A stretch of 56,426 bases of DNA. Source: a virus. Its lineage: Duplodnaviria; Caudoviricetes. The stretch is from the IMG/VR virus record IMGVR_UViG_3300045733_000287, positions 1 to 56,426 of that record; one strand, 5' to 3'. Each line of letters begins with the position of its first letter. The stretch's first letter is position 1. The position numbers and the translations under genes were made by a program. The notes beneath the pieces were generated by a model. That model saw only the letters and a list, made by a program, of their open reading frames with translations. It made no database searches and had not been told where the DNA came from. This document shows positions 1 to 56,426 of the stretch, in pieces.

Positions 1-127
1 TGAAACCTTTTGTGGCTCTGGTATGCCTGTGAGGGCAATATTTTTAAGTATGTAACTTACATCTTTCATTTAGTCCCTGTTAATCCAACGCATCAAATTT
101 ATGAACAATAAATAACATATCCGAATA
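1..127. repeat. 127-bp exact direct repeat, copy 1
   Basis: Identical to 54009-54135; first mismatch at base 128. Confidence 0.95.
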
Positions 128-138
128 TTTTTAAACAT

Positions 139-2004
139 TTATTTCAAAAATAAACCCGCTTTATTGTAAAGTCTTTTATTTGCTATGTCACAATATTCTG
201 AAATCAATTCCGATAGAATGAAATTAAAGCCTTCATTCGTTGCTGAAAGCGCAGCAGGACCTGACCCGCCAAACGGATCATAAGTTAAGCCTCCTTTTGG
301 TGTTACAAGTCTCTGCAGGTATTGAATTAATTTTATAGGTTTAACTGTCGGGTGAAAATTTTGTGAAGACCTGTTTGTTCCATCGCCTTGAAACGATCCG
401 GGGTTTTGGGTACCACTTGACCAGATCATAGGTTTTGTCTGAAACTGATGTAACCCATCATTCCGTTCACCCCTGTCAGCTTTCGCAATGTAAAAGAACC
501 TCGAGGCCCCGCCTTTGTCGTCATAGAAAGTATCACCGTCATCGCCTCTTTGAGCATAGTCACCGTAGATGCCTTTTGATTTACCACTATGTCCTGATTT
601 GACTTTCGCAAACGCTCCGGCTTCGGGTACCTGTTTATCAAGTTCAACTGCAGTAAACTCATCGAGAATTATATTTGCAGGAAAACGACCAATAGTCATA
701 AAGTCAGTTGATTTCTTCATATTATTACCAAATCCGCTGTCACCACAATTCATTCCACTCCCCCCTTCTTTGTCATATTCTCTTGGTTCTGTTGTCCTAC
801 TTACTTCAACCCTGCACCCATCAATATTAATTCCACCTGTACCCCATTTTAAGACATTCTGAGCAACGGTCTTTTCGCTTAATGGCTTTCGTGCTACACA
901 AATATGATTATGATGTGATTTTCCGTCCTCTTCCTGGAAGTTTTGAAGATCCGTTGATATAGCATTGACGTGAGCAGAAAGCATTTGGATGTTCTTTAAT
1001 AACTCCATTGAGTCGAGTAAATATTTTACCACAGGAGGGACATTCGCATATTGTTCTTTTTGACAAATCTTTTCCTTTATGATGTAATTGAGAATGTCTT
1101 GCGACAAGTAACAATTCAAGGTTTTCGGGTCTATTATCTGATCTATTTGTGTTTTTGTGGTGGACATTTTCAGACGACAATAATTTTCTTCCGAGTATTT
1201 GCTCCATGATGATACGGTGTTCAAGTTGATACTCATTTCCGACTCGAATTGCGACATATCCATCTGATCTAATAAACCTGCCGACATACTGATGGCTTCT
1301 TCTGCAGTCCATTGAACAATACCTAACGCCTCGCTTAATTCTTTTGGGCTTAACTTGAAATTCTTTTCCGCAACATTCACATTTAACAGTAACCATAATT
1401 TAAGTTTTAATACATATAGGCTCATGCAAATACTATGCCAATATTGTATATCTGTAAGGGGTTTTTGCGCAACGGTTATTATTTCATGTGCGGGCTTTAA
1501 ACCGGTACCCCAGCCGGACCAATAAGTGGCCGGATAAGTGGCCGGATAAGTGGCCGGACGTTCTTTGCCTCCATCAAACATTGATTTTTTACCCTGCTTT
1601 TGAGAAGTCCAAGTCTGTTCTCCTTTGTCATTAAGAATATTTTCTCTTTTTACGCCTGCCTGTTTGTCAATAGCCTTGCTAATATCTAATGACTTCGGGA
1701 ATCCCGACCCGTAGAGCCACAGAATTGAATCTCTTATTTCAAATCCTGCATCTTCAATAGCGCAAACCATACGGTGTGATGTCCGGGTACCACCAAAAGC
1801 AAGTAAGTACCCGCCGGGCTTTAATACCCTTAAACACTCCTTCCAAAGATCTACATTATAAGCAATGCCGGAGTTATCCCATTTTTTACCCATAAATCCA
1901 AGTTCATACGGAGGATCTGTTACTATTGAATCAACAAAATTATCCGGCATTCGTTTCATGGTTTCCCTGCAATCTTCATTATATATTTTATTCAGTTCTA
2001 TCAT
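139..2004 (-). CDS. Beta-class N4/N6 DNA methyltransferase with an internal 192-codon insertion
   Basis: N-terminal DPPY; C-terminal HPTVKP and DPFGGSG motifs. Confidence 0.9.
   Translation of the reverse strand: MIELNKIYNEDCRETMKRMPDNFVDSIVTDPPYELGFMGKKWDNSGIAYNVDLWKECLRVLKPGGYLLAFGGTRTSHRMVCAIEDAGFEIRDSILWLYGSGFPKSLDISKAIDKQAGVKRENILNDKGEQTWTSQKQGKKSMFDGGKERPATYPATYPATYWSGWGTGLKPAHEIITVAQKPLTDIQYWHSICMSLYVLKLKLWLLLNVNVAEKNFKLSPKELSEALGIVQWTAEEAISMSAGLLDQMDMSQFESEMSINLNTVSSWSKYSEENYCRLKMSTTKTQIDQIIDPKTLNCYLSQDILNYIIKEKICQKEQYANVPPVVKYLLDSMELLKNIQMLSAHVNAISTDLQNFQEEDGKSHHNHICVARKPLSEKTVAQNVLKWGTGGINIDGCRVEVSRTTEPREYDKEGGSGMNCGDSGFGNNMKKSTDFMTIGRFPANIILDEFTAVELDKQVPEAGAFAKVKSGHSGKSKGIYGDYAQRGDDGDTFYDDKGGASRFFYIAKADRGERNDGLHQFQTKPMIWSSGTQNPGSFQGDGTNRSSQNFHPTVKPIKLIQYLQRLVTPKGGLTYDPFGGSGPAALSATNEGFNFILSELISEYCDIANKRLYNKAGLFLK
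880..1488 (-). mobile_element. HNH homing-endonuclease insertion inside the methyltransferase
   Basis: Duplicated flanking motif HEIITVAQKPL (1488-1456) and HNHICVARKPL (912-880), 576 bp apart, enclosing the HNH ORF. Confidence 0.75.
908..1396 (-). CDS. HNH endonuclease with Zn-finger repeats, nested in an alternate frame
   Basis: EHRIIMEQILGRKL..ENVHHKNTNRSDNRPENLEL; CxxC..YCS..C and CxxC..FCS..C fingers; A-rich start region TAAAACTTAAATT-ATG. Confidence 0.9.
   Translation of the reverse strand: MVTVKCECCGKEFQVKPKRIKRGVRYCSMDCRRSHQYVGRFIRSDGYVAIRVGNEYQLEHRIIMEQILGRKLLSSENVHHKNTNRSDNRPENLELLLVARHSQLHHKGKDLSKRTICECPSCGKIFTRLNGVIKEHPNAFCSRQCYINGSSKLPGRGRKITS
1522..1557. repeat. 12-bp tandem repeat x3 (ATAAGTGGCCGG), encoding PATY x3
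   Basis: Three exact units read directly. Confidence 0.95.
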
Positions 2005-2378
2005 TTCAAGTATTCGTCAATGATTTTCCGGCATTCGTCAAACCCGACACCGAATTCCGCCCTATAACCTTTCTCCCGGAGTGCCTGTATCATCTCAAAC
2101 TGCTCGGTTAAATGTGGTGTCGCCGGTTGTAATGACTTATTGAGTAGTTTCGTCCCTTCGACTTTGATCTCAATGAACAGACCGTGCCAGAAGCTTCTTG
2201 GTGAAGCAATAAACAGATCAGGATATCCTTTATTTCCCTGTATCGCTTTCATTTTGCCTGACTGAGCTTTTGATAAATTCAGCCCGGCATAATCGAAATG
2301 ATAGATTACCTTCGGAAATTGATATCTCAAATACATGGCTATTGCCTGACAGATTTGATATTCACGGTCGTTTCTCAT
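2001..2378 (-). CDS. VRR-NUC family nuclease (resolvase-like), allele A
   Basis: GYPDLFI..GLFIEIK..Q....L...GY motif. Confidence 0.85.
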   Translation of the reverse strand: MRNDREYQICQAIAMYLRYQFPKVIYHFDYAGLNLSKAQSGKMKAIQGNKGYPDLFIASPRSFWHGLFIEIKVEGTKLLNKSLQPATPHLTEQFEMIQALREKGYRAEFGVGFDECRKIIDEYLK

Positions 2379-2896
2379 AGTATAATTATTTCTTCCTCAT
2401 TATTTCTATTTATATAGGCAAATACCTGATCTTTTTTGACTTGCTTACTTATTACAACATCTTTAGAATAACTGGCTTTGTACCATTCAGCATAGCTTTT
2501 TGATAATGTATATGATAATCCATTATCCTTTTCACTGTTTGTAGCACGATAAACAATAAGGTTTTCTGGTAATTCTCTGATTTTATTATGTTCTTCAGGA
2601 GTTGAAAAATAATATTGTTCTTTCCTATTTGACTTCATTAATAGTCTGAATAAGTCATTATACTCAATAGACCCGCAAAGAACCCAGGCAGTACGGAGAA
2701 GTTCCCAGTATCTTTCATCTGATAAATTCTTTTTATTTTTTACAAATATCTCAAGAACCTCTGTCTGGCTGTGATTTACATCCCAAGCATGAATTAACTT
2801 CTTTGAAATTTTAGAATCCTTTATTAACACCTTTTGTTTTAATTTAGGATACCGCCGTGTCATTGGTATATGAACATTATTACCTTCAGTCGTCAT
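2375..2896 (-). CDS. Hypothetical protein, possible ADP-ribosyltransferase-like fold
   Basis: VYRA...GLSYT...EEEII resembles the R-S-ExE pattern. Confidence 0.45.
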   Translation of the reverse strand: MTTEGNNVHIPMTRRYPKLKQKVLIKDSKISKKLIHAWDVNHSQTEVLEIFVKNKKNLSDERYWELLRTAWVLCGSIEYNDLFRLLMKSNRKEQYYFSTPEEHNKIRELPENLIVYRATNSEKDNGLSYTLSKSYAEWYKASYSKDVVISKQVKKDQVFAYINRNNEEEIIIL

Positions 2897-2917
2897 CTTA
2901 TTAGTTTTGAATTAACT

Positions 2918-3058
2918 CTATCTAAAATAATCAATGACCTGCTCGGTTTCCTCCGCTTCAGCTTCATGCGGATCAGGAATATTATCGCTCTGATCGGTTC
3001 GGAAAATACTTTCAACTGAAAATTCATCTTCATCTGTTTCGGGATAATGTTTGTTCAC
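2918..3058 (-). CDS. Small acidic protein, allele A (GTG start likely)
   Basis: Conserved at protein level with 55387-55530. Confidence 0.65.
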   Translation of the reverse strand: MNKHYPETDEDEFSVESIFRTDQSDNIPDPHEAEAEETEQVIDYFR

Positions 3059-3560
3059 GGTTAAGGCACTTTTGCATAAGCTCATACATTCCAATTTTCT
3101 CATGATTCTTCCAGTTAGTACGTTTATTTTCCTCATACATTTCAGTTAATTTATCCCAGTTTTCAACCAAATTAGACCATTCAGGACAAAGTTTTTTCAA
3201 TCGGAATAATGATGTTTTCCATTCCGGAACTGCCTGTAAGAGTTTATAACACCTGCTAAAATCATCAGGATCGTAAGGATAATTAATCGGGAATTTTTCT
3301 GTACCCACTAAACAATTCCACATAGTTTTTGAACTCATACCATGTTCCCCGTTTGCCATCCACCACATTGCTTTTTCTTTTACCCCTTGCGATTGGTCAA
3401 CTTCTGGCTCTTTCCATGTCGGTGGACAGTCTTCGTGTAGTTTATCAAAAGCCTTTATCTTTTTTCCTAACTCATCAACAGGAATAGGATATTGTATTTT
3501 ATGCGATTCCCCACAATTCAAACAGAATAATTTTTCATTTCTTATTGTTGTGTTTTTCAT
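3030..3560 (-). CDS. Hypothetical phage protein (N-terminal CxxC; PYDPDDFSRC motif)
   Basis: 176-aa ORF with A-rich start region; absent from allele B. Confidence 0.75.
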   Translation of the reverse strand: MKNTTIRNEKLFCLNCGESHKIQYPIPVDELGKKIKAFDKLHEDCPPTWKEPEVDQSQGVKEKAMWWMANGEHGMSSKTMWNCLVGTEKFPINYPYDPDDFSRCYKLLQAVPEWKTSLFRLKKLCPEWSNLVENWDKLTEMYEENKRTNWKNHEKIGMYELMQKCLNREQTLSRNR

Positions 3561-3587
3561 CTCATTATAGTTTTGATAGGAATTTTA

Positions 3588-3977
3588 TTAATACCCCGTT
3601 TTTGTTAGTCTCAACTCTTCTTTCTCATAGGAAAGCAATGACCGTAAACCGTCAATCTGATGCACGCAACCTCTGTTAATCCTTTCAATCCAGTCAACTA
3701 TGAAGGATTCTTCCTCACAGATCGAATCTAACAGGGCATTTTGGACAGTTGCAGACAGATGTGATGCTTTGGCTATCTTAATTATTGTCCTGTTTATTTC
3801 AAGGGTCTTTTTGCCTCTCAGGTCTTTCTTGGCTTGTGCCAACATTTGCCCGGAACGTGACATGTAACTCATCAGAGTAGATATTCTTTCCGTCATTTCT
3901 TCAGGATCGTTTGAAACAACAATATCTAAATATGACTGAATTGTTTCAGCCTCTTTTTTAATCTCATCTATATTCAT
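3588..3977 (-). CDS. Hypothetical helical phage protein, allele A
   Basis: 129 aa; near-identical protein at 55532-55921. Confidence 0.85.
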   Translation of the reverse strand: MNIDEIKKEAETIQSYLDIVVSNDPEEMTERISTLMSYMSRSGQMLAQAKKDLRGKKTLEINRTIIKIAKASHLSATVQNALLDSICEEESFIVDWIERINRGCVHQIDGLRSLLSYEKEELRLTKTGY

Positions 3978-3979
3978 GG

Positions 3980-6058
3980 CTATTCTTTATAGAATCCCTG
4001 AAAACGAATGACATTCATATACTCCGGTGACTTAATAAGTCCATCACCACGTCCGTTAAGCGATTCTGCTCCCGGCTCATCAATCACAACCATTGAATCA
4101 ATATCTTTAGGGACCCTGAAACATACCTGCACTGGCAGGTTTACTTTTGCATCTCCCGTGATAACCTTTGTTGAAGCTCTCTGAGTAGCTGACATGATTC
4201 TAAAGCCACAGGAACGCCCCTTTTGCAGTAATACCCGCAGGTTTTCTTCCAGTGACTTATCGACACTCTTGACAACTCTCTTTGTCTTGGTGGCTCCATT
4301 GGCATATCTCCCAACAACCTCTTCACCGTAATTCTTCAGATCATTGCCCTTTCTGCTATTTGCAACAGCATCCGCGAACTCATCAAATACAACAAGGGTT
4401 TTTTTGTTGATGCCGTTCTTAACCCTGCTTTCCATTTCCTCTACAAGCATCATGATCTGAAGCTCAATTTCTTCTATTTCACAAACTACCTTAACCCCGG
4501 AGACTTTTGAATAGCCTTTAAATTCATGTTTAGGGTCGAAAATATAGACCTCATGCACTCCTGTTAATAAGGCATATTCAATTGTTGACCTCAGGAATAC
4601 CGATTTACCGGATCCGGTTGCACCACAAACTAAAATGTGCGGAGTTGAATGATTGTCGAGATCCCAAAAGATTGTTTGTCCGAAGTTATCAACACCGATA
4701 GGCAGCCCGTGACCATTAAGTTTTGAACCGTCCCAGACAAGTGTCGATGTGTTTTTCTTCCCTGACTCAATTACCAGGTAAGACTTCCCTTCATATACAA
4801 ACAAATCTTTGTTTATCCTGACATTTGAGACATTCAGGGCGTTTGCGATGTCAAGTTTATATCTCTGGATGGATGAGATTTGCACCCCTGCATTTATCTC
4901 AAGCAAATATGATGCACTGGAATAGCCGTCAAATATGTGTTGAACCTTTGCAATTATGCCAAAGGATCTGAGTATGTGTTCTATTTTTTCCTGGTTTGTC
5001 ATGTTTTTATTTGTGAAATCGTACGGTATAAATTCTTCTGTGAACTTTTTAAAGTTTCGAATGGTTGTCGGGGTTACGGAAGCCAGTGAGGAATCTCTGA
5101 TTTTCCTCATGCGCTCCCTGAGTAATGGCTTTTTATTCTCAGGTATGTTGAAATCTTCAACCTCTGCAATCATTGTTCTTGCCCAGAAATCATATAATTC
5201 AGCTTTATCTGAGAGGTTATCATTATCATTAATCATGTAAACATAATCCGGGTTCCCGACCGCCTCAATCATTCTCTTAAGTGGTTCATACAGCAATGCT
5301 TCATAAAGTCTCCTGGTGTCGGCATTCATCACAATCTTTGTTCTGATCATTTGCGGTGAACCATCTTTATTCTTTGATGATTTATTTTCGATTAACCAAA
5401 CCTCGTCAATCTTTTCGCCATATTTTTCTTCATACCCCAAAACATAGGTAATGGCTTGTTTTCCGCTTGTGAATTTTAGTTCTTTGTCATCGGTGAAAAT
5501 ACCTTTCGACTTATGATCTGTAATAACCCGTTTGCCATCGTTCGTTGTGAAAACAAGGTCCAGAACTAAATGGCAGGGCATTGGAATATCGACCCCGTTA
5601 ATTGTCAACCATGAGGTTATTGACTCTTCAACACTGATAACTTCTTTTATCTCATCGGTGTAAATATGAATCTGAGTTAAGAAATTATTAAGCAGTTTTG
5701 TAACTGTTTCCGTTGCTGCAATTTTGCACTCCTCAATTGTCGGAGTTGTTTTCATGATCTTCCAATAGTCTGCCCGGACATTATCAATATAAGCGTATGC
5801 AACTGTTTCAAGAGCGACCAAATCAGTTACGACACCCTCTTTAAGGTTTGAGAAATATAAACGAAGCGCAGCATGATAAGCCTGTCCGGCTATCGTTGTG
5901 GCAGAACTTTTGCCATAGCAATGATAAATATATTGCATCTCGAATGCTTTTTCATTGCCGGCAAAGGTTCTTGTTTTGGAATAAGACCAGGAGTCAATCA
6001 GATAGTTTGATAATAACTCCTCTTTTTGCTCCTGGCTTAAATCTTTGTACTTATTCAT
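3980..6058 (-). CDS. PD-(D/E)XK nuclease fused to an FtsK/SpoIIIE-type ATPase
   Basis: SYSK..GQAYH..LDLVF..ITDHKS; PHILVCGATGSGKS, VFDEFAD, GRSCG..ATQR, GAESLNGRGDGL; start moved to ATG 6058 to avoid overlap with the upstream gene. Confidence 0.85.
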   Translation of the reverse strand: MNKYKDLSQEQKEELLSNYLIDSWSYSKTRTFAGNEKAFEMQYIYHCYGKSSATTIAGQAYHAALRLYFSNLKEGVVTDLVALETVAYAYIDNVRADYWKIMKTTPTIEECKIAATETVTKLLNNFLTQIHIYTDEIKEVISVEESITSWLTINGVDIPMPCHLVLDLVFTTNDGKRVITDHKSKGIFTDDKELKFTSGKQAITYVLGYEEKYGEKIDEVWLIENKSSKNKDGSPQMIRTKIVMNADTRRLYEALLYEPLKRMIEAVGNPDYVYMINDNDNLSDKAELYDFWARTMIAEVEDFNIPENKKPLLRERMRKIRDSSLASVTPTTIRNFKKFTEEFIPYDFTNKNMTNQEKIEHILRSFGIIAKVQHIFDGYSSASYLLEINAGVQISSIQRYKLDIANALNVSNVRINKDLFVYEGKSYLVIESGKKNTSTLVWDGSKLNGHGLPIGVDNFGQTIFWDLDNHSTPHILVCGATGSGKSVFLRSTIEYALLTGVHEVYIFDPKHEFKGYSKVSGVKVVCEIEEIELQIMMLVEEMESRVKNGINKKTLVVFDEFADAVANSRKGNDLKNYGEEVVGRYANGATKTKRVVKSVDKSLEENLRVLLQKGRSCGFRIMSATQRASTKVITGDAKVNLPVQVCFRVPKDIDSMVVIDEPGAESLNGRGDGLIKSPEYMNVIRFQGFYKE

Positions 6059-15825: not shown

Positions 15826-16592
15826 TTAAACGTTAAGTTTTGCTGTGCCAAATGATTCTTAATTCTCTTTTCTGCAATATCAAAATACTTTTCATCTTTT
15901 TCCATACAAATATAATTCCGGTTTGTATTTATACAAGCTATTGCAGTAGTGCCACTTCCGGCACAATTATCTAAAACTAAATTCCCTTCATTGGTATAGG
16001 TTTTGATAAGATATTCAAATAAGAGTACGGGTTTTTGAGTGGGGTGGAATCGTTGTTTTTTGAATTGATTATTAACCTCTAATGGAAACTCTAAAATTGA
16101 TTTTGGCATTCTAAGTTCAGTCATATTTATTCTTTGTCGTGATTTTATATTTCCATATACTTCACCCGGCAAAGTCTCAAAATCATAAGAGCGATTAAAC
16201 CTATTAGATTTACGGTTAATTTTAATAGGGTTGTAAATTGGTATGTTTTTATAGAATACTAATATATTTTCATGCTCCTTTATTGGTTGCGTTTTCGCTG
16301 TCATAAAATTACCTCCTCTTTTTTTATCCCAAATCCATTCATATTTAAACATTTTAATATTTGACATTACCAAGGCACTTGTAAAGGGCTGTGAGGCTGT
16401 TAAAACTATTGCACCATTATCTTTAATAACTCGCTTGTATTGTTCCCAAAGAGGCTCAAAAGGTATTATAACATCCCATTTACAGGCAGTAGTTCCATAA
16501 GGCAAATCACAAAGAATCATATCAATACTCTTATCAGGAATTAGTGGCATTAACTCCAAGCAGTCACCAATATATGTTTTATTCAACTTCAT
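15822..16592 (-). CDS. Beta-class N4/N6 DNA methyltransferase
   Basis: DLPYG; HPTQKP; LDNCAGSGTT. Confidence 0.92.
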   Translation of the reverse strand: MKLNKTYIGDCLELMPLIPDKSIDMILCDLPYGTTACKWDVIIPFEPLWEQYKRVIKDNGAIVLTASQPFTSALVMSNIKMFKYEWIWDKKRGGNFMTAKTQPIKEHENILVFYKNIPIYNPIKINRKSNRFNRSYDFETLPGEVYGNIKSRQRINMTELRMPKSILEFPLEVNNQFKKQRFHPTQKPVLLFEYLIKTYTNEGNLVLDNCAGSGTTAIACINTNRNYICMEKDEKYFDIAEKRIKNHLAQQNLTFK

Positions 16593-17266
16593 TATTTAAA
16601 TATCAGTTCAATTCTTATTGCAAGTAATGTCGGAGCAAGTCCTTCAATCAGGACCGTTAATCCGTTTCCAAGTATCCCGGAATATGAGGAGTTGAACGGT
16701 ACTAATAATCTTTCATTTGAGCCGTCAATCTCATATACCTTCACATCAACTATTTTCTTTCCGGTAAGAGTATGGGTAACGAGCAGATTAGTAGTGCTAT
16801 TTGCAGCAATTGTCCATCCAGTTGGATAATCATCGCCTTCAGTAGCAGCTGCCACTCTTGCGGCAACGGTTGTCTGTGCGGTCAGGTCAATTGAATAGAT
16901 ATTAATCGCTCCGGAAGTATTTATAGCGTCTACTGCAGCATCCAGTACATTAACAGCGGCCATAGCTTCAGCCAGTGCATCTTCTACATTAGCGGCATCA
17001 TAAAGATTACCTGTATCATCTATTAAGACCTGTTCTGCATCTTGCAGGCTTCCGGCAGCCAATGCTGTAAGGCTTGCCATATCTTCAGAAAACATGTAAA
17101 TAACCCCGTCAATATTTACCAGTAATCCCGGGCAGCGTGAACCGATTGGAATACCGGCCAGCACTTCGGCTTCATCGGTCCATGGAGCACCTTCATTCAA
17201 ATATCTCTCATCAACCGGGCTTTGAGTGGCTGGAAAAAATCCTATTACAATAGTTCCTGTTGGCAT
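16592..17266 (-). CDS. Tail-region structural protein
   Basis: Acidic Ala-rich 224 aa with NVEDALAE motif. Confidence 0.6.
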   Translation of the reverse strand: MPTGTIVIGFFPATQSPVDERYLNEGAPWTDEAEVLAGIPIGSRCPGLLVNIDGVIYMFSEDMASLTALAAGSLQDAEQVLIDDTGNLYDAANVEDALAEAMAAVNVLDAAVDAINTSGAINIYSIDLTAQTTVAARVAAATEGDDYPTGWTIAANSTTNLLVTHTLTGKKIVDVKVYEIDGSNERLLVPFNSSYSGILGNGLTVLIEGLAPTLLAIRIELIFK

Positions 17267-41400: not shown

Positions 41401-41599
41401 GGACTTTTCTCTCTGTGCCGGTTTCTATTGCTTTAACTTATGTTCCGGAAGCAATTGTATATCGTTTAAAATAATATTCATCGGGCCTCCTATTTCCTGT
41501 CAGAGAAAAATAAATCAACAAATCTTCTTGCATAAGCACTGACATGCTGCCAGAATATCCATTGCCTTACTTTCAGAGGCCCCTCTCTTTGGTTGTTTG

Positions 41600-41672
41600 T
41601 TGCATCGAAGGGATTCGAACCCCTAACCTTCAGATTATGGGTCTGACGAGCTGGCCGCTGCTCTACGATGCG
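41600..41672 (-). tRNA. tRNA-Met(CAT), initiator-like
   Basis: Full cloverleaf folded by hand: C1xA72, GAGC/GCTC D stem, TCAGA-CCCATAA-TCTGA, GGTTCGAATCC; CCA not encoded. Confidence 0.9.
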
Positions 41673-49369: not shown

Positions 49370-50308
49370 TTATTTTGACTTGTTGAAAAACTCACTAAAA
49401 GACTTATTTCCATATTCCCCTTTTGTTACTTTTATCATTTCAACAATAGTGTATTTCTTCTGCTTATTCTTAAGTCTGTTTGATACGAAGTCTTTTGTAC
49501 CGAATGAACAGGCTCCGGTAATTACTCTGTAACACATTATCGCATCCTCGAAAGAAAGAGAGTCAGTAAGTTTTAAGTGCTTATAATCATCTTTTGTCCT
49601 GTTGCTGATCTTGAACATCAAATCGGACTTTGCTTCTTTTAATGTCTCTCCGTGCGACCACTTGCCATTACCATCAGTAACTAAATAAAAAATCTCTTTT
49701 TCTCCGATTTTGCGCACATGGTAAACATTGCCTCTGTGACTTATTACTTCTGTGAAAATTCCGTCAGCCAATAAGTATTTCCCGTCCTGCCATGATAATA
49801 AATATCCGCTTGGTAATTTTTTGTAAGTGGCTTTCAATTGGCTACTCAGGTAAAGAGAGCCGCCAACGGTAGGGTTGAATCCTTCAGGGATGCTTGTCAG
49901 TCTCCTCAGGTAAAGAGAGCCGCCAACGGTAGGGTTGAATCCTTCAGGGATGCTTGTCAGGCTACTCAGGTCAAGAGAGCCGCCAACGGTAGGGTTGAAT
50001 CCTTCAGGGATGCTTGTCAGGCTACTCAGGTCAAGAGAGCCGCCAACGGTAGGGTTGAATCCTTCAGGGATGCTTGTCAGGCTCCTCAGGTAAAGAGAGC
50101 CGCCAACGGTAGGGTTGAATCCTTCAGGGATGCTTGTCAGTCTCCTCAGGTAAAGAGAGCCGCCAACGGTAGGGTTGAAGCCCTCAGGGATTGATGTCAG
50201 TCTCCTCAGGTAAAGAGAGCCGCCAACTTTTTCTTTGCCGTAAAATTGAGCGATTGTGATATTTGCTCTACTGCAAAAATCTTTAATTAATTGTGTTGCT
50301 TTTTTCAT
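49370..50308 (-). CDS. LRR-like 20-aa repeat protein with a globular C-terminal domain
   Basis: (VGGSL[YD]L[RS][RS]LTSIPEGFNPT) x6.5; YRVITGAC..GT. Confidence 0.85.
   Translation of the reverse strand: MKKATQLIKDFCSRANITIAQFYGKEKVGGSLYLRRLTSIPEGFNPTVGGSLYLRRLTSIPEGFNPTVGGSLYLRSLTSIPEGFNPTVGGSLDLSSLTSIPEGFNPTVGGSLDLSSLTSIPEGFNPTVGGSLYLRRLTSIPEGFNPTVGGSLYLSSQLKATYKKLPSGYLLSWQDGKYLLADGIFTEVISHRGNVYHVRKIGEKEIFYLVTDGNGKWSHGETLKEAKSDLMFKISNRTKDDYKHLKLTDSLSFEDAIMCYRVITGACSFGTKDFVSNRLKNKQKKYTIVEMIKVTKGEYGNKSFSEFFNKSK
49841..50227. repeat. 60-bp coding tandem repeat, about 6.5 units
   Basis: Units line up row by row in the 60-nt listing. Confidence 0.97.
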
Positions 50309-50325: not shown

Positions 50326-51009
50326 TTATTTTAAAAGTCGTGAAAGGTTAGTTTTACGGTCTATAACTGTGAATTTTTGAAGTTCATTAATCAGTGCCAG
50401 AAGTTTCTCTTTTGAGGGTTCGGGTAAATGATGACCTTTCGAGTCGGCTCCGATGTTAACACTAACGGGATTAGCCATTTTTATCAGTGTTACTAATTCG
50501 CTCAAATCGAAGTCCATGATCGGTTCCAGCGTAACTTGCTTGGAAAATTCAGAGATACAATTCATGGCATAAGACCTCTGGTCAGGACGGGGTGTATTTC
50601 CCATTTGTGGATATATACGATTAGTTTCAATAGTCGTGCAGAGAATTGATTTTGCCGGAAACTCTTTTATAACCGGGATGAACCGTTCGGGATTCTTTGT
50701 CTGGAATAAGTAAGTATTATCAAACTTTTTGCAGTGGTTAAAAACCTCATGAATCCAATGTTCCGGAATGCAGTGTTGAAACAAATCATTCTGAGCGACT
50801 ACAAAATAAGTATTTCCCTTACCTAGATTCTTTGATAATGCGTTGTAATCTAATCTCAATGGCCCGGAATACTTCACCCTTATTGTTTCCATTCTTTTCT
50901 TCCAGCTATGAGTCGAACAGTAAGTGCATTTATGAGAACACTCTCCCCCTAATGGGTTCCATGTTTTGAATCCCGGGTACATATTGCCGTTTGAATTATT
51001 TTGTTTCAT
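50326..51009 (-). CDS. DUF5131 (phage Gp37/Gp68-like) radical-SAM-like protein
   Basis: TWNP..GECSHKCTYC, DLF, QTKNPER, EP. Confidence 0.75.
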   Translation of the reverse strand: MKQNNSNGNMYPGFKTWNPLGGECSHKCTYCSTHSWKKRMETIRVKYSGPLRLDYNALSKNLGKGNTYFVVAQNDLFQHCIPEHWIHEVFNHCKKFDNTYLFQTKNPERFIPVIKEFPAKSILCTTIETNRIYPQMGNTPRPDQRSYAMNCISEFSKQVTLEPIMDFDLSELVTLIKMANPVSVNIGADSKGHHLPEPSKEKLLALINELQKFTVIDRKTNLSRLLK

Positions 51010-51239: not shown

Positions 51240-51637
51240 GATATTGATTTGATTAAATTTTCTTCTTCATATTCAAATAGGCTGACAACATAACATTCCA
51301 TAGTTTCAATTCTTTCGGGTTTACAGGTTTGGCTGAGAATAAAGTCAGCGGAGATTTCAAATACAGTCAGGTCCGTATAATTTCGATAACACCACTCCTG
51401 AATTCTTCCGTATTTTTCACCCGTCAAAGGATGTGCATGAACCACTTCATAAATGCACTCTATCACTCCATTTTTATAACAAGCAACATCAGGGACAAAT
51501 ATCATTTTGCCCTCAAAACAAAACGGCTTTTCAACCTCGCCATTAACCCATGATGCGAGTATCTTTACTGCGCTCTCATGATAGCCTGATTCGTTTTTCT
51601 TAAAACGGGGCTTCATCATCACTTTTACCTGATTCAT
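51236..51637 (-). CDS. PD-(D/E)XK-like nuclease fold protein
   Basis: E.YH..VEKP..FVPDV..YEVV..H. Confidence 0.55.
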   Translation of the reverse strand: MNQVKVMMKPRFKKNESGYHESAVKILASWVNGEVEKPFCFEGKMIFVPDVACYKNGVIECIYEVVHAHPLTGEKYGRIQEWCYRNYTDLTVFEISADFILSQTCKPERIETMECYVVSLFEYEEENLIKSIS

Positions 51638-53336
51638 AAAAATCTATTGTTTGTGGAATTGAAATTTCTTTTTGATTTAATGCCAGCCAGTTGCTTGAAT
51701 CATTTCCGGCCTGATTAAACCTGCCGGTCTCGTAATCATAATTCAATGATATAATTCCCTGCTTCCCTAGATGTTTATATTTAATTTTCTGGAAATAAAC
51801 ATTGACTTCATTTAACATTACATTTTCGTCTGTTGTCTTTCTGTGAACCGTAATGCCATAATCAGTCTTATTATAGAAATTTGCAGATCCGGAAATATCA
51901 TAAAGGCTCGGTACTTCAATTTTGCCGTCAACCTTATTCATTTTTTTCGGGTGTGCCACTAAGAAAATTAGCACATTATTGAATTTTGCAAATTGGATGA
52001 TCTGATCTAAGAACCTGCTTATATATTGAGTTTCAGAATCAGTGTATTTGTGTTCTAATTTGTTATAAGGATCTATAACCAAAACCTTAACCCCTCTTGT
52101 TTTTACCAATATCCGGGCAGAATCCAATATGCTTTTAACTGTGAAATCTTCTTCATTAAGTATATAAAAGAAGTTATTCCGGATATAATCATAAGCCATA
52201 TCCCATTCTAATTCATTGGTTTTGCTCTGGCTGAATTTTTTACCTATCAGTTTTTCAAACAGTTTGGCATAATGAAATTTCAAAGGATAGTTTTCCGGAG
52301 TAAAAAATGCAGCTTTCCACCCATGTTTAATATTTAGTTTAGTAACTATATAATCAACAAACTCCGACTTACCTGATGCGGGTATTCCTGTGACTATTGC
52401 CAGTCGTGAAGTCTCCCAACTTATCTGTTCATCTATAATTTTTTGATCTATTTTACTCCCTTCCTGGATTCCCTGTTCATAAAGATTCCGGATATCAGCA
52501 TATAAACTGTTTGTTTCAATTATTCCCTTTACCGGAACCGGAATAGCATTTGTAATAACATCTTTTATCCCGTCCCCGTATTTCTGAAGATATTCATTTG
52601 CATCCTTACAATCTTTGAATGATACAACATAACAGCGTTCCGGTCCAAGTCTCCGGATTAATTCCCCTTTTAACTCAATACCTTTTGTGTCCTGATCTGT
52701 TGCAATGAAAATCTTTTTGATTCCGGAAAACATTTCAATACATGAATCCAGGTATTCAAGATTCTTGTTTGCCCCATTTGGAACTGACATAGTATTATCA
52801 AACCCTGCTTGTATTAAGGTAAGTGCATCTATTTCACCCTCTACAATTATAACTTCATCAAACTTTGTAAGGCAATTAATATTCCAGAAAATAAGTTCAG
52901 CTCCGGAAACTAATTTAAAAGACTTTTGCGGACCCCTGAATTTTATATTGATTAGTTTGTCATTAAAGAAATAAGGGAAACAAATTACTGGAACATTTTT
53001 ACTAAATTGAGGCATAAATTCAACATCAGAATAAACCCGCATTTTAACAAGTGTACTCTGATTAATCATTCTACCTTCAAAATATTTAACTGCTTTATCT
53101 GTAAGTTCTGTTTTATTGGACCATTCAGGGTAAATATATTCTTTTGCTTCATGTGGACGGTATTCAAAAAAGGCTGCCATACAATTATGGCAATAACCCC
53201 GGTTATTCTGTTTATCCCATGACAGACATTTATCTGTTTTCTTTTTTCTTAAATGTGAACATTCCGGACAAAGGCTGGTTGATTTGTCGGGTTCATAATT
53301 ATATATTTGCTTTGTGACTGATGATTGAATTTTCAT
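51600..53336 (-). CDS. Primase-helicase (Zn ribbon + TOPRIM + SF4 helicase, T7 gp4/Twinkle-like)
   Basis: CPEC..CHNC; VEGEIDAL; ATDQD..G; KDANE; TGIPASGKS; VIDP; LVAHP; ISGSA. Confidence 0.92.
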   Translation of the reverse strand: MKIQSSVTKQIYNYEPDKSTSLCPECSHLRKKKTDKCLSWDKQNNRGYCHNCMAAFFEYRPHEAKEYIYPEWSNKTELTDKAVKYFEGRMINQSTLVKMRVYSDVEFMPQFSKNVPVICFPYFFNDKLINIKFRGPQKSFKLVSGAELIFWNINCLTKFDEVIIVEGEIDALTLIQAGFDNTMSVPNGANKNLEYLDSCIEMFSGIKKIFIATDQDTKGIELKGELIRRLGPERCYVVSFKDCKDANEYLQKYGDGIKDVITNAIPVPVKGIIETNSLYADIRNLYEQGIQEGSKIDQKIIDEQISWETSRLAIVTGIPASGKSEFVDYIVTKLNIKHGWKAAFFTPENYPLKFHYAKLFEKLIGKKFSQSKTNELEWDMAYDYIRNNFFYILNEEDFTVKSILDSARILVKTRGVKVLVIDPYNKLEHKYTDSETQYISRFLDQIIQFAKFNNVLIFLVAHPKKMNKVDGKIEVPSLYDISGSANFYNKTDYGITVHRKTTDENVMLNEVNVYFQKIKYKHLGKQGIISLNYDYETGRFNQAGNDSSNWLALNQKEISIPQTIDFYESGKSDDEAPF

Positions 53337-53953
53337 GGCATCATAAGTTTTTCAGGTTTTTTCTTATTCCGCTGTTCCCATGTTCTTATTGCTGATTGCC
53401 AGTCTTTCATTTTATCCTTACCTACCTTCCACCCCCTTGTTTGATACCAGTCATAGAAATAATTTGCATCTATTCCGTTATTTCTTTCTTTACAATATTT
53501 TGTAATCAAATAAATTGGAGGAGGTATAATATTCTTTTCATTCTTAATCATTCTTAATCCTTCTTGTTTGGGGGTAGTGTCCGTTTCCTCTCCGTTTACT
53601 TTGCGTTTACCTTTTGTTTCTTTTGCGTTTACCTCTATTTGGTAATTATCGTAATTACATACCGTTATCCGTGTACTAATTTGAATACTTTCGTATAGTA
53701 ACATGGAGTCTTTTTGTAATAACTCAAAAAACTCCTTAACTGTTTTCTTTGTTACATTCCAATCCCTTGCCCATGTTTCTAATGACCGCACGCTTTGCCC
53801 TCTTTTACACTCAATAAGATTGCCTTTAATTAATACTTTTGTATCAGCATGATTAACGGATAATAAAATATCTATCCACCACTGAAATCTATTCTGTGAC
53901 TTCCAAATCCAATGATCTTTGATTTTACGGTGTATCTTAATCCAGCCTTCCAT
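53333..53953 (-). CDS. Replication initiator / replisome organiser
   Basis: GWIKIHRKI.DHWIW..LA..W..ITVCNYD.YQ..F.D.Y...GW..MKDW.SA.RTW; start at ATG 53953. Confidence 0.8.
   Translation of the reverse strand: MEGWIKIHRKIKDHWIWKSQNRFQWWIDILLSVNHADTKVLIKGNLIECKRGQSVRSLETWARDWNVTKKTVKEFFELLQKDSMLLYESIQISTRITVCNYDNYQIEVNAKETKGKRKVNGEETDTTPKQEGLRMIKNEKNIIPPPIYLITKYCKERNNGIDANYFYDWYQTRGWKVGKDKMKDWQSAIRTWEQRNKKKPEKLMMP
53531..53636. repeat. Putative replication origin: five 11-bp-phased iterons plus 10-bp AT-rich repeats
   Basis: GTTT cores at 53583, 53594, 53605, 53616, 53627; TTCTTAATC-type repeats at 53531-53566. Confidence 0.6.
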
Positions 53954-53954
53954 G

Positions 53955-54077
53955 TTAAATAAGAATGCCCCCACAAGCAAAAGCCACTAAGGAACAGGGA
54001 CTAGCTGTTGAAACCTTTTGTGGCTCTGGTATGCCTGTGAGGGCAATATTTTTAAGTATGTAACTTACATCTTTCAT
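53955..54077 (-). CDS. 40-aa leader peptide upstream of the replication initiator
   Basis: Hand-translated MKDVSYILKNIALTGIPEPQKVSTASPCSLVAFACGGILI; stop 1 nt before the initiator ATG. Confidence 0.5.
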   Translation of the reverse strand: MKDVSYILKNIALTGIPEPQKVSTASPCSLVAFACGGILI

Positions 54078-54109
54078 TTAGTCCCTGTTAATCCAACGCA
54101 TCAAATTTA
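53966..54109 (-). promoter_or_regulatory. Promoter (-7 TAAATTTG) and structured 5' leader of the replication operon
   Basis: Exact TAnnTTTG at 54102-54109; ~22-bp hairpin; 11-nt inverted repeat. Confidence 0.6.
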
Positions 54110-54135
54110 TGAACAATAAATAACATATCCGAATA
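54009..54135. repeat. 127-bp exact direct repeat, copy 2
   Basis: Identical to 1-127. Confidence 0.95.
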
Positions 54136-54146
54136 ATATTAAACTT

Positions 54147-54548
54147 TTATTTCAAATATTCGCCAATGATTTTCTTACATTCGTCAAACCCGACACCGAA
54201 TTCCGCCTTATAACCTTTCTCCCTGAGTGCCTGGATCATCTGAAACTGCTCCGTTAGGTGATCTGTGGCCGGTTGTAATGACTTATTAAGTAGTTTCGTC
54301 CCTTCGACTTTGATCTCAATGAATAGACCGTGCCAGAATCTATTTGGAATGCCTTTATAATAACCACCGGGTTCCGCAATGAACAGATCAGGATAGCCTT
54401 TATTGCCTTGTATCGCTTTCATTTTCCCTGCCTGAGTTTTGGTATGATGAAGCCCGGCATAATCAAAATGAAAAATGACATTCGGAAATTGATATCTCAA
54501 ATACATGGATATTGCCTGACAAATCTGATATTCACGGTCGATTTTCAT
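54147..54548 (-). CDS. VRR-NUC family nuclease, allele B
   Basis: Homologue of 2001-2378 with an 8-aa insertion. Confidence 0.85.
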   Translation of the reverse strand: MKIDREYQICQAISMYLRYQFPNVIFHFDYAGLHHTKTQAGKMKAIQGNKGYPDLFIAEPGGYYKGIPNRFWHGLFIEIKVEGTKLLNKSLQPATDHLTEQFQMIQALREKGYKAEFGVGFDECKKIIGEYLK

Positions 54549-55365
54549 AATCTATTATATAATTTAATTTCATCCCTTTATATTTTTCCTGACTGACATT
54601 TGAAATCCACCAATCAAAAACATCATCAGCACTAACAAAATCAGCATATTTTCCCTTGTTCATTAATTCGGTAATAGACTTTTTAATTAACGCCTCAACT
54701 CTTGGATAATTCCTTCTATCCCTTTGTTTTGATTTTACAGTACAATTAGGACAAAACATACATCCAATTCTTGTATAGCCTTGATCATATAATTCGCAGT
54801 ATTCCATTTTACGGTTCCTGATGAAATTCCAAACGTCTGAATTTGTCCAGTTAATTATCGGAGAAAGTAATATCTTATCTTTGCCGTTTATACATAATAT
54901 CTGATCTTTGTTGTCGATATTAAACTGATCTAAACTATTTGAATATTTATGACCGGATATTTCCAGTTCGTTACGCTTTGCCCTTTTATTACTTTCTGCT
55001 TTTCTTATCCCTATAATAGTTACTGTATTTCCTCCTGATTGTTCTTTTAATTCCTTACAACAAAACCTCCGCATCATTGTAGGTAATGACTGATATTTTA
55101 TGATTAATTTATAAAAGTTCAAATCCGGTCTTTCAAAAATAACTTCGGGATATTTATTTCTGACAAATCGCATTAATTCAGGAGGGTCGATTGTCGTTAC
55201 TTGCATAACCGGACGAAATTTTACCTCTGCCATTTTACACAACTCATAAATAACTTGTGAATCCTTCCCGCCTGAAAAAGCCAAATGGAAACCATAATCC
55301 TGATATTTTAAAGCCAATGATTCTGCTTTTTGGATAGTCTGTATTGCAGTATCTATCTTATTCAT
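54532..55365 (-). CDS. PAPS/APS reductase family protein, allele B only
   Basis: FSGGKDS, RFCCKELKE, RIGCMFCP. Confidence 0.88.
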   Translation of the reverse strand: MNKIDTAIQTIQKAESLALKYQDYGFHLAFSGGKDSQVIYELCKMAEVKFRPVMQVTTIDPPELMRFVRNKYPEVIFERPDLNFYKLIIKYQSLPTMMRRFCCKELKEQSGGNTVTIIGIRKAESNKRAKRNELEISGHKYSNSLDQFNIDNKDQILCINGKDKILLSPIINWTNSDVWNFIRNRKMEYCELYDQGYTRIGCMFCPNCTVKSKQRDRRNYPRVEALIKKSITELMNKGKYADFVSADDVFDWWISNVSQEKYKGMKLNYIIDYENRP

Positions 55366-55386
55366 CTTTTCAGTTTTGAATTAACC

Positions 55387-55530
55387 CTATCTAAAATAAT
55401 CAATGACCTGCTCGGTTTTCTCCGCTTCAGCTTCATGCGGATCAGGAATAATATCGCTTTGATCGGTTCGGAAAATACTTTCAATAGAAAATTCATCTTC
55501 ATCTGTTTCGGGATAATGTTTGTGAGTCAT
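55387..55530 (-). CDS. Small acidic protein, allele B
   Basis: MTHKHYPETDEDEFS...; homologue of 2918-3058. Confidence 0.65.
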   Translation of the reverse strand: MTHKHYPETDEDEFSIESIFRTDQSDIIPDPHEAEAEKTEQVIDYFR

Positions 55531-55531
55531 T

Positions 55532-55921
55532 TTAATAGCCTGTTTTAGTCAGTCGCAATTCTTCTTTTTCAAAGGAAAGCAGCGACCGGAGGCCGTCAAT
55601 CTGATGAACACAACCCCTGTTAATTCTTTCAATCCAGTCAACTATGAAGGATTCTTCCTCACAGATCGAATCTAATAGGGCATTCTGTACCGTTGCAGAC
55701 AGATGGGAGGCTTTGGCTATCTTAATTATTGTCCTGCTTATTTCAGCAGTCTTTTTGCCTCTCAGGTCTTTCTTGGCTTGTGCCAGCATTTGCCCGGAAC
55801 GTGACATGTAACTCATCAGATTAGAAATTCTTTCTACCATTTCTTCAGGATCGCCTGAAACAACAATATCTAAATACGACTGAATTGTTTCGGCCTCTTT
55901 TTTAATGTCGTCTATATTCAT
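55532..55921 (-). CDS. Hypothetical helical phage protein, allele B
   Basis: Homologue of 3588-3977. Confidence 0.85.
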   Translation of the reverse strand: MNIDDIKKEAETIQSYLDIVVSGDPEEMVERISNLMSYMSRSGQMLAQAKKDLRGKKTAEISRTIIKIAKASHLSATVQNALLDSICEEESFIVDWIERINRGCVHQIDGLRSLLSFEKEELRLTKTGY

Positions 55922-55924
55922 AAT

Positions 55925-56426
55925 TTACTCTTTATAGAATCCCTGGAACCGGATGACATTCATGTATTCAGGTGACTTAATTAAACCATCTCCACGTCCA
56001 TTAAGTGATTCAGCTCCCGGCTCGTCAATCACAACCATTGAGTCAATATCTTTAGGGACCCTGAAACATACCTGCACCGGCAGGTTTACTTTTGCATCTC
56101 CGGTAATAACTTTCGTTGAAGCTCTCTGAGTAGCAGACATGATTCTGAAACCACAAGAGCGGCCTTTCTGAAGTAATACTCTGAGGTTTTCTTCCAGGGA
56201 CTTATCGACACTTTTAACTACTCTCTTTGTTTTTGTAGCTCCATTAGCATACTTCCCTACAACTTCTTCACCGTAATTCTTCAGGTCATTGCCCTTTCTG
56301 GAATTAGCAACGGCATCCGCGAACTCATCGAATACAACAAGAGTCTTTTTGTTGATACCATTCTTAACCCTGCTTTCCATTTCAACAACCATCATCATTA
56401 TATGAAGCTCTATTTCTTCTATATCA
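55925..56426 (-). CDS. FtsK-type ATPase C-terminus, allele B (truncated by the window end)
   Basis: Near-identical protein to the C-terminus of 3980-6058, with many synonymous changes. Confidence 0.85.
   Translation of the reverse strand, partial: DIEEIELHIMMMVVEMESRVKNGINKKTLVVFDEFADAVANSRKGNDLKNYGEEVVGKYANGATKTKRVVKSVDKSLEENLRVLLQKGRSCGFRIMSATQRASTKVITGDAKVNLPVQVCFRVPKDIDSMVVIDEPGAESLNGRGDGLIKSPEYMNVIRFQGFYKE

Follow-up and report, generated by a model that had tools for sequence, protein, structure and literature searches.

A putative translated RNA leader with conserved loop-to-start complementarity in front of a DnaD-like replication gene of a Caudoviricetes virus

The window analysed in this work is the whole of virus record IMGVR_UViG_3300045733_000287 (Caudoviricetes), which comes from an uncultured river phage, comprises 56,426 bases and is estimated to be 88% complete. 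The element under study is a leader encoded on its minus strand, directly in front of a gene for a DnaD-like helicase loader, itself followed by a primase-helicase gene (Table 1). The start of the DnaD-like gene was placed at the ATG at 53953, the start common to its homologues, which begin MEGWIK...; a longer, TTG-started open reading frame (ORF) was rejected as the main gene start on the same ground. A preliminary description of the locus, made from the sequence alone, had called this gene a replication initiator. Its assignment to a replication-module protein stands, but the match found is to a DnaD-like helicase loader family (phrog_2514), and an initiator role is at most putative; no Pfam family was found for the 206-residue protein at E up to 0.01.

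In the direction of transcription, the leader consists of a Bacteroidota-type -7 promoter box, an 11-nt 5' element, an upstream open reading frame (uORF) whose frame spans an entire large hairpin, and a U-rich tail that reaches the main start codon. The promoter box, the 11-mer followed by A and ATG, and the 40-codon uORF with its TAA one nucleotide (C at 53954) before the main ATG had been pointed out previously and were exact in the sequence. The large hairpin with its 4-nt bulge was confirmed, as was the perfect 11-nt complement between its loop (54003-53993) and the sequence at the uORF start (54089-54079). Transcription is predicted to start near 54097, which would give the uORF a 5' untranslated region of about 20 nt, most of it (11 nt) occupied by the loop partner. 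The window hairpin alone folds at -39.8 kcal/mol (z = -5.67; none of 200 dinucleotide shuffles equalled it), and the 171-nt leader region at -49.4 kcal/mol (z = -2.97). The duplex between loop and 5' element was computed at -16.8 kcal/mol, while freeing the loop bases costs 3.6 kcal/mol. The tail carries 7 U in its first 10 nt, in an interrupted run, and a simple terminator scan called no minus-strand site.

Table 1. Features of the leader and of the replication genes in the window (for the minus strand, paired stem segments are given from the 5' to the 3' side of the hairpin).
Feature	Position	Strand	Remarks
Bacteroidota-type -7 promoter box, TAAATTTG	54102-54109	-	Read in the sequence
5' element, AACAGGGACTA (11-mer)	54079-54089	-	Complementary to the hairpin loop; followed by a single A before the uORF ATG
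uORF	53955-54077	-	40 codons + TAA; ATG at 54077, TAA at 53957-53955; spans the entire hairpin
Hairpin, 78 nt	53967-54044	-	Codons 12-37 of the uORF
Hairpin outer stem, 13 bp	54044-54032 with 53979-53967	-	
Hairpin bulge, 4 nt	54031-54028	-	UACC
Hairpin second stem, 8 bp	54027-54020 with 53987-53980	-	
Hairpin inner stems, 4 and 5 bp	54017-54014 with 53992-53989; 54009-54005 with 53997-53993	-	
Hairpin apical loop	54004-53998	-	
Loop partner, TAGTCCCTGTT	53993-54003	-	Apical loop plus the 3' strand of the innermost stem; fully complementary to the 11-mer at 54079-54089
U-rich tail	53954-53966	-	From hairpin to main start; may act as an attenuator U-tract and as the unstructured region around the main start codon
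DnaD-like helicase-loader gene	53333-53953	-	206 residues; PHROG phrog_2514, E 1.1e-30, residues 1-201
Primase-helicase gene	51600-53336		Next gene after the DnaD-like gene; Toprim and DnaB_C domains
Second leader copy	1-151	-	Truncated; holds the promoter, the 5' element (71-81), the start of the uORF and the hairpin's 5' half; 97% identical to 54009-54159

Allowing up to one mismatch, the window contains the 11-mer four times (0.9 expected); the two leader arms and the duplicate leader at the contig start account for three of them. The other is a one-mismatch copy at 17251-17261 (minus strand), within codons 3-6 of a 224-residue ORF (16592-17266) for which no Pfam family was found; the number of such matches is at chance level, and this copy is a conceivable trans target. 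No Rfam 15 family matched a region overlapping 53951-54110 at E up to 10, and the leaders of six relatives were without an Rfam match at E up to 1. A tRNA/tmRNA scan found none at the leader, the sole tRNA of the record lying far away. A nucleotide search of the GenBank phage collection left the leader unmatched; it returned one short match inside the downstream gene, to the DnaD-like gene of a Mammaliicoccus phage.

The leader recurs among relatives of the DnaD-like gene. Protein-guided scans of viral, metagenome and genome collections (6, 80, 80 and 19 loci) provided 123 distinct upstream regions, 11 of which, as judged by eye and by script, carried the leader directly before the homologous gene (the window, L010, L014, L018, L089, L011, L016, L074, L090, L015 and L031). 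Since the hairpin search accepted only stems followed by 5 or more T within 9 nt, the U-rich tail of these first 11 members is present by construction. A covariance model, built from the window hairpin, rebuilt from 10 relatives and searched against 187 loci and the window, recovered all 11 members together with four loci that had not been used to define the pattern, giving 15 loci. The proteins of member loci are 36-91% identical to that of the window. The four added leaders all lie upstream of a DnaD-like gene and directly precede another ORF: one of 107 codons and Zn-finger-like, one gene farther upstream of the DnaD-like gene (L013), one helicase-like (L021), one of at least 65 codons without assignment (L081) and one that is KilA-N/Bro-like by eye (L086). 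Since other genes follow the leader in these four loci, it marks the first gene of a replication or early module, rather than the DnaD-like gene as such. The earlier placement of the leader in front of the initiator gene is too narrow for these loci. Two other matches of the model were set aside: a plain hairpin lacking both 5' element and uORF (L109), and the only match in three Bacteroidales-type genomes, a weak one in a Prolixibacteraceae bin (L188) to a long intergenic hairpin of repeated units of about 17 nt, which is not the leader. Prophage homologues in Bacteroidales and Prolixibacteraceae genome bins had no leader directly upstream.

Conservation of the hairpin was apparent at the level of structure. 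In all of the first 11 members it was more stable than expected, with z-scores between -3.8 and -7.2. An alignment of 13 sense rows, those within the cut-off of E 9.5e-06 and hence without L086 and L018, had 94.4% of 302 cells in standard pairs, against 66.1% in shuffles (none of 500 reached the observed value) and at most 54.5% when the partners were slid along the same alignment; the model fitted this alignment to the structure, which favours pairing, and the slide control shares it. In the same 13 rows, changes on both sides were found in 22 of the 25 hairpin pairs, with a covariation score of 0.755 versus 0.223. A separate count over 15 rows (the 18-row model alignment minus three antisense rows) gave 330 canonical cells out of 349 and double changes in 23 of 25 pairs. 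RNAalifold applied to a MAFFT alignment of the leaders returned only 4 pairs; that alignment was poor, and the model-based one was used instead. Pairing of the A-rich 5' flank with the U-rich tail was rejected as a further helix, its 11 added pairs being mostly unpaired and almost without covariation. G-U pairs make up 47 of the 314 stem pairs, and the sense strand folds more stably than the antisense strand in 11/11 members. Because of these G-U pairs and this strand asymmetry, the structure points to a sense-strand RNA hairpin and not to a DNA cruciform or a structure in an antisense RNA.

The complement between loop and uORF start covaried as well. When the 100 nt upstream of the hairpin were compared with the hairpin interior, the longest Watson-Crick complement ended 0-2 nt upstream of the uORF ATG, at a distance of 29-36 nt from the hairpin, with its partner in the apical loop, in 11/11 of the first members. 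Its length was 5, 6, 6, 6, 8, 8, 8, 8, 9, 9 and 11 nt in these loci, while complements of at least 8 nt arose in only 3 of 110 cross-locus pairs and 46 of 2200 shuffles. The four model-found loci have the same arrangement, with complements of 9, 8, 8 and 6 nt; L081 departs slightly, its complement sharing 1 nt with the ATG and ending 27 nt upstream of the hairpin. Over the 15 loci, the 15-nt uORF start region has a mean complement of 7.67 nt to its own loop versus 3.90 nt to the loops of other loci, and the observed sum for own loops was reached in 0/20000 permutations. The sequences of 5' element and loop differ widely between loci and the position of the pairing is kept. On these comparisons the leader is not a product of chance, and the narrow spacing between loop and 5' element fits a pseudoknot formed within one molecule. 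In L013 (around 1035-1043) and L074 (around 1466-1477), the element recurs in direct orientation 1-2 nt ahead of the main ATG, so that the loop could pair with either start.

An ATG follows the 5' element in all 15 members, and it opens a frame of 32-45 codons. This frame is open to within 24 nt of the hairpin end in 15/15 loci, whereas the other two frames are open in 1 of 30 cases; as the uORF ATG was picked for at least 25 open codons, it is this contrast with the other frames that is informative. In 11 of the 15 loci, no more than 5 nt separate the uORF stop from the main ATG. By contrast with the frame, the peptides are unrelated between members, and a 1-nt indel between the close relatives L089 and L011 shifts the uORF frame through the hairpin. 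A real small protein was rejected for these reasons, and it is the translation of the uORF, not its product, that appears to be under selection. Covariation upstream of homologous genes and conservation of the uORF in relatives were among the tests named in the preliminary description, and both came out in its favour.

A sister group of leaders, here family B, was found before homologous genes of 44-48% identity, and comprises 19 further distinct leaders (e.g., L110-L147; in L132 at around 1390-1500). They begin with a promoter and a first hairpin, which are followed by a small middle hairpin and, immediately ahead of the ATG, by a canonical terminator (GC-rich stem of 9-10 bp, 8-nt loop, T-run). 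The loops of first hairpin and terminator are complementary over 7-9 nt and lie 30-34 nt apart, and these loop/loop pairs occur in at least four covarying sequence variants, with a fifth recognised by eye. A uORF reaching the main ATG is present in 6/20. The theme common to both families would be a 5' element that pairs with the loop of a terminal hairpin, to which the leaders of the window type (family A) add a translated uORF.

The promoter and the likely host are relevant to the way in which such a leader could work. An exact TAnnTTTG lies 26-32 nt upstream of the uORF ATG in 9/11 relatives, and a version with one mismatch in the other two. PMC6847099 identifies TAnnTTTG as the -7 motif of Bacteroidetes promoters, its G falling at position -5 relative to the start, and describes translation in these bacteria as being initiated without Shine-Dalgarno pairing and tuned through RNA structure near the start codon. 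The nearest genomic homologues of the DnaD-like protein come from Bacteroidales and Prolixibacteraceae bins (55-69% identity). Since initiation in this phylum is independent of Shine-Dalgarno pairing and tuned by structure, a helix abutting the uORF start codon should be strongly inhibitory in a Bacteroidota host. No conserved antisense promoter was found when 11 loci were compared; an antisense TAnnTTTG is present within the first 135 nt of the gene in 5 of them, inside conserved codons, and absent in the others.

From a mechanistic point of view, we consider that these observations are best explained by a cis-acting, ribosome-gated translated leader of the replication module, to which we assign a probability of about 0.6. 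Ribosome binding at the uORF start and pairing of this start with the loop would be mutually exclusive. A ribosome that loads on the nascent uORF before the loop is transcribed, about 75 nt later, would trail the polymerase and melt the hairpin or prevent its formation; it would then terminate beside the main ATG, so that the downstream gene may be translated by coupling or re-initiation, and it may also suppress termination at the U-rich tail. Where no ribosome has loaded, the loop would capture the uORF start region and the hairpin would close, leaving the RNA locked in an untranslated state and possibly terminated. The net effect would be that access of ribosomes gates the expression of the replication genes. 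Because the uORF, the hairpin and the loop complement are conserved and covary, a regulatory leader with leader-peptide coupling before a replication gene is the best reading, and the interpretation offered earlier is supported in part.

Several observations weigh against this ribosome-gated reading. Three close protein relatives (L009, L092 and L020, 68-85% identical) have no leader directly upstream, and in L013 the leader stands one gene farther up than the DnaD-like gene. Coupling at the main start does not have the same geometry everywhere: the uORF stops 24-31 nt before the main ATG, within the 3' arm of the hairpin, in L013 and L081, and overlaps the main gene by 13-23 nt in two of the 15 loci. 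Coupling might moreover be unneeded, the hairpin ending 10-21 nt before the main ATG in the first 11 members. The U-rich tail of the window, A-UUCUUAUUU, differs from a canonical terminator, and the fitting of the covariation alignment to the structure, mentioned above, belongs here too. Finally, because family B keeps the loop-loop complement, mostly without a uORF, the loop pairing must, as far as these sequences tell, have a role independent of the uORF.

A rival that we hold rather unlikely is a small RNA acting in trans, in which the loop of the terminated leader would pair with the uORF starts of new transcripts, as for P4 CI RNA or Gifsy-1 IsrK. Such control would depend on dose, as a measure of copy number or time, or would provide immunity between related phages. 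The self-complementarity it requires is present and covarying, a U-rich tail follows the hairpin, and family B combines a canonical terminator with the same kind of loop complement, mostly in the absence of a uORF. Many loop/target "specificities" are seen among relatives, and PMC4825925 offers precedents both for a leader RNA that, once terminated, acts via a uORF on the read-through mRNA from which it derives and for P4 CI RNA controlling replication genes. However, an RNA acting in trans needs no particular distance between element and hairpin, whereas the narrow spacing observed (29-36 nt in 14/15 loci, 27 nt in L081) fits a single molecule; the stems are as variable as the loop, so that loop diversity requires no special selection; and the sole other near-match of the target in the genome is the one-mismatch site described above, at chance level.

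Two further explanations were considered. If the leader were an origin element or operator acting as DNA, the 8-11-mers would be sites for the DnaD-like protein or a repressor, the hairpin a cruciform or single-strand initiation signal, and even a part for the transcript as primer or activator of replication is conceivable. The leader does adjoin replication genes and has AT-rich flanks, in L013 and L074 the element is repeated in direct orientation next to the main ATG, and replication origins often lie beside or inside initiator genes. We nevertheless judge this improbable: the G-U pairs are mismatches in DNA and on the other strand, and the sense strand is the more stable one throughout; the inverted copy is always in the apical loop and the direct copy always abuts the start codon; and a frame open through the hairpin in 15/15 loci is unexpected of protein-binding sites. 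Even less credit, amounting to very little, is given to an ordinary intrinsic terminator of the upstream genes with an accidental small ORF and an accidental 11-nt complement. A GC-rich hairpin between co-directional genes, with A-rich 5' and T-rich 3' flanks, has the looks of one, the terminator scan did call a terminator-like site on the plus strand at 54032-54045, and stop codons are few in GC-rich hairpins. Against it, a promoter box of fixed position separates the hairpin from the upstream gene (9/11, and two more with one mismatch), the hairpin is only about 13 nt from the ATG, so that the downstream gene must be transcribed through it, and a helix of the A-rich and U-rich flanks is unsupported. 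Loop complement and uORF recur in 15/15 loci with different sequences, and with proteins as little as 36% and at most 91% identical to that of the window, these loci are not one recent clone.

The surroundings of the leader vary. The first 4.3 kb or so of the record and its last 2.4 kb (1-4300 and 54009-56426) are variants of each other, 85-97% identical with indels. The contig begins inside the hairpin loop, hence the truncation of the second leader copy, of which the covariance model matches 1-47. From these end-to-end variant copies it follows that the contig wraps around a genome that is circular or permuted and that strain variants went into its assembly. The gene upstream of the left copy encodes a 621-residue N6/N4 DNA methylase (139-2004), which sits between the leader and a 125-residue ORF, while a 133-residue ORF is found upstream of the right copy. 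DNA contigs from a riverine metagenome that contain the leader region end at 53955, 53968, 54050 and 54149-54156, and one of them carries, between unlike flanks, a variant hairpin that has three small insertions and, within the loop partner, a substitution at 54000. Given these different neighbours and the contig ends at the leader edges, the leader is common to variants with different neighbours, and its edges behave as module boundaries. Around the replication genes lie a DUF5131 protein (50326-51009) and a PAPS-reductase-domain protein (54532-55365). Elsewhere in the record, a 312-residue ORF (49370-50308), for which no Pfam family was found, contains six tandem 60-nt repeats (49780-50259) that encode repeated 20-residue units, and the sole tRNA is a phage tRNA-Met (anticodon CAT) at 41599-41672 on the minus strand. 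As noted in the preliminary description, no integrase is visible: neither PF00589 nor PF00239 (tyrosine and serine recombinases) was matched in this record, 88% complete as it is. The role in copy number or in a lysis decision that the same description suggested for the leader is hypothetical.

That leader peptides, pseudoknots and self-complementary RNAs can control replication genes is textbook knowledge for enterobacterial plasmids, P1 and P4, and no description of such leader control for Bacteroidota phages emerged from searches of the literature and of Rfam. The leader resembles the I-complex, P4 CI/IsrK, P1 c4 and pyrBI systems in its logic and, as it seems, is a member of none of them, because the partner of its loop is the start of the uORF itself, a conserved antisense promoter did not emerge and Rfam gave no match. 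In I-complex plasmids, a pseudoknot between the hairpin loop and bases by the rep ribosome-binding site activates rep translation. In the phage loci, the leader ORF likewise stands directly before the gene it leads into (a uORF in 15/15, with the stop at most 5 nt from the main ATG in 11/15); the partner of the loop, by contrast, is at the uORF start in 15/15 and copied at the main start only in L013 and L074. Because of this distribution, a pseudoknot is more likely to be inhibitory for the uORF than to be an activator of the main gene as in RepZ. The RepZ/RepA analogy drawn previously was therefore retained for the layout of leader ORF coupling, and given up for the site of loop pairing. Other likenesses with the IncI1 and IncB/K/Z plasmids (PMC10286972; titles cited in PMC10724649) are that translation of the leader ORF (repB or repY) is needed for the replication protein, that its stop adjoins the start of the replication gene and that the gene controlled is a replication gene. 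In these plasmids, too, a hairpin loop engages in long-range pairing, and an antisense RNA, RNAI, is transcribed from the opposite strand of the leader. The phage leader differs in that its ORF spans the whole hairpin, in the type of host, which lacks Shine-Dalgarno pairing, in the lack of a conserved antisense promoter among the loci compared, and in showing no sequence or model similarity in Rfam.

The analogies with P4 CI and P1 C4 made in the preliminary description are apt in logic. In P4 CI RNA (seqA/seqC) and Gifsy-1 IsrK-orf45-anrP, as given in PMC4825925, a leader segment is complementary to the same transcript, and a terminator lies within the leader of a phage regulatory or replication operon. 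In Gifsy-1, the same source describes orf45 as a uORF translationally coupled to the downstream gene, with RNA pairing setting access to the ribosome-binding site. Self-complementarity within the transcript was found in the phage leaders, as a covarying complement of 5-11 nt in 15/15. The P4 CI and IsrK RNAs act in trans after termination or processing, whereas for the phage leader both a short RNA and an action in trans are hypothetical. Element order and shape also differ, Rfam gave no match, and the hosts are Enterobacteria in one case and Bacteroidota in the other. In P1 and P7, loop/target pairs differ between related phages, a basis of heteroimmunity. The immI c4-icd-ant operon of these phages (PMC8198154) has a structured RNA that pairs with the start of a small upstream ORF in the same operon, and the downstream gene depends on that ORF. 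Unlike the phage leader, c4 RNA lies upstream of its targets and is a processed trans repressor, the gene controlled in P1 is an antirepressor and not a replication gene, and icd encodes a functional protein, whereas the uORF peptide is not conserved. Attenuation of the pyrBI type shares a leader ORF of about 40 codons that runs through a hairpin and a U-rich tract. In pyrBI, a closely following ribosome prevents the attenuator hairpin from forming. The loop-to-start pseudoknot has no counterpart there, no signal resembling UTP-sensitive pausing is evident in the phage leader, and termination in the latter is putative.

Overall, the leader is very probably a real RNA control element of a kind that has not yet been catalogued. 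We would only tentatively, and with a good deal of doubt, go on to suggest a novel class of RNA switches, gated by ribosomes and found in phages whose hosts do without Shine-Dalgarno initiation, in which the terminated leader doubles as a sense-strand RNA that shuts the uORF start of later transcripts. Such an RNA would count genome copies or time and would set specificity between co-infecting relatives, as a form of RNA incompatibility or immunity, family B being the untranslated version. The motif is compact and strongly covarying, and belongs to phages whose predicted Bacteroidota hosts have an initiation that is free of Shine-Dalgarno pairing and dependent on unstructured start regions. 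It offers a candidate new RNA family for the annotation of uncultured phage genomes and may serve as a marker for the start of replication modules. It would also provide a simple system in which to study the coupling of ribosome access with RNA folding, and perhaps with termination, in Bacteroidota.

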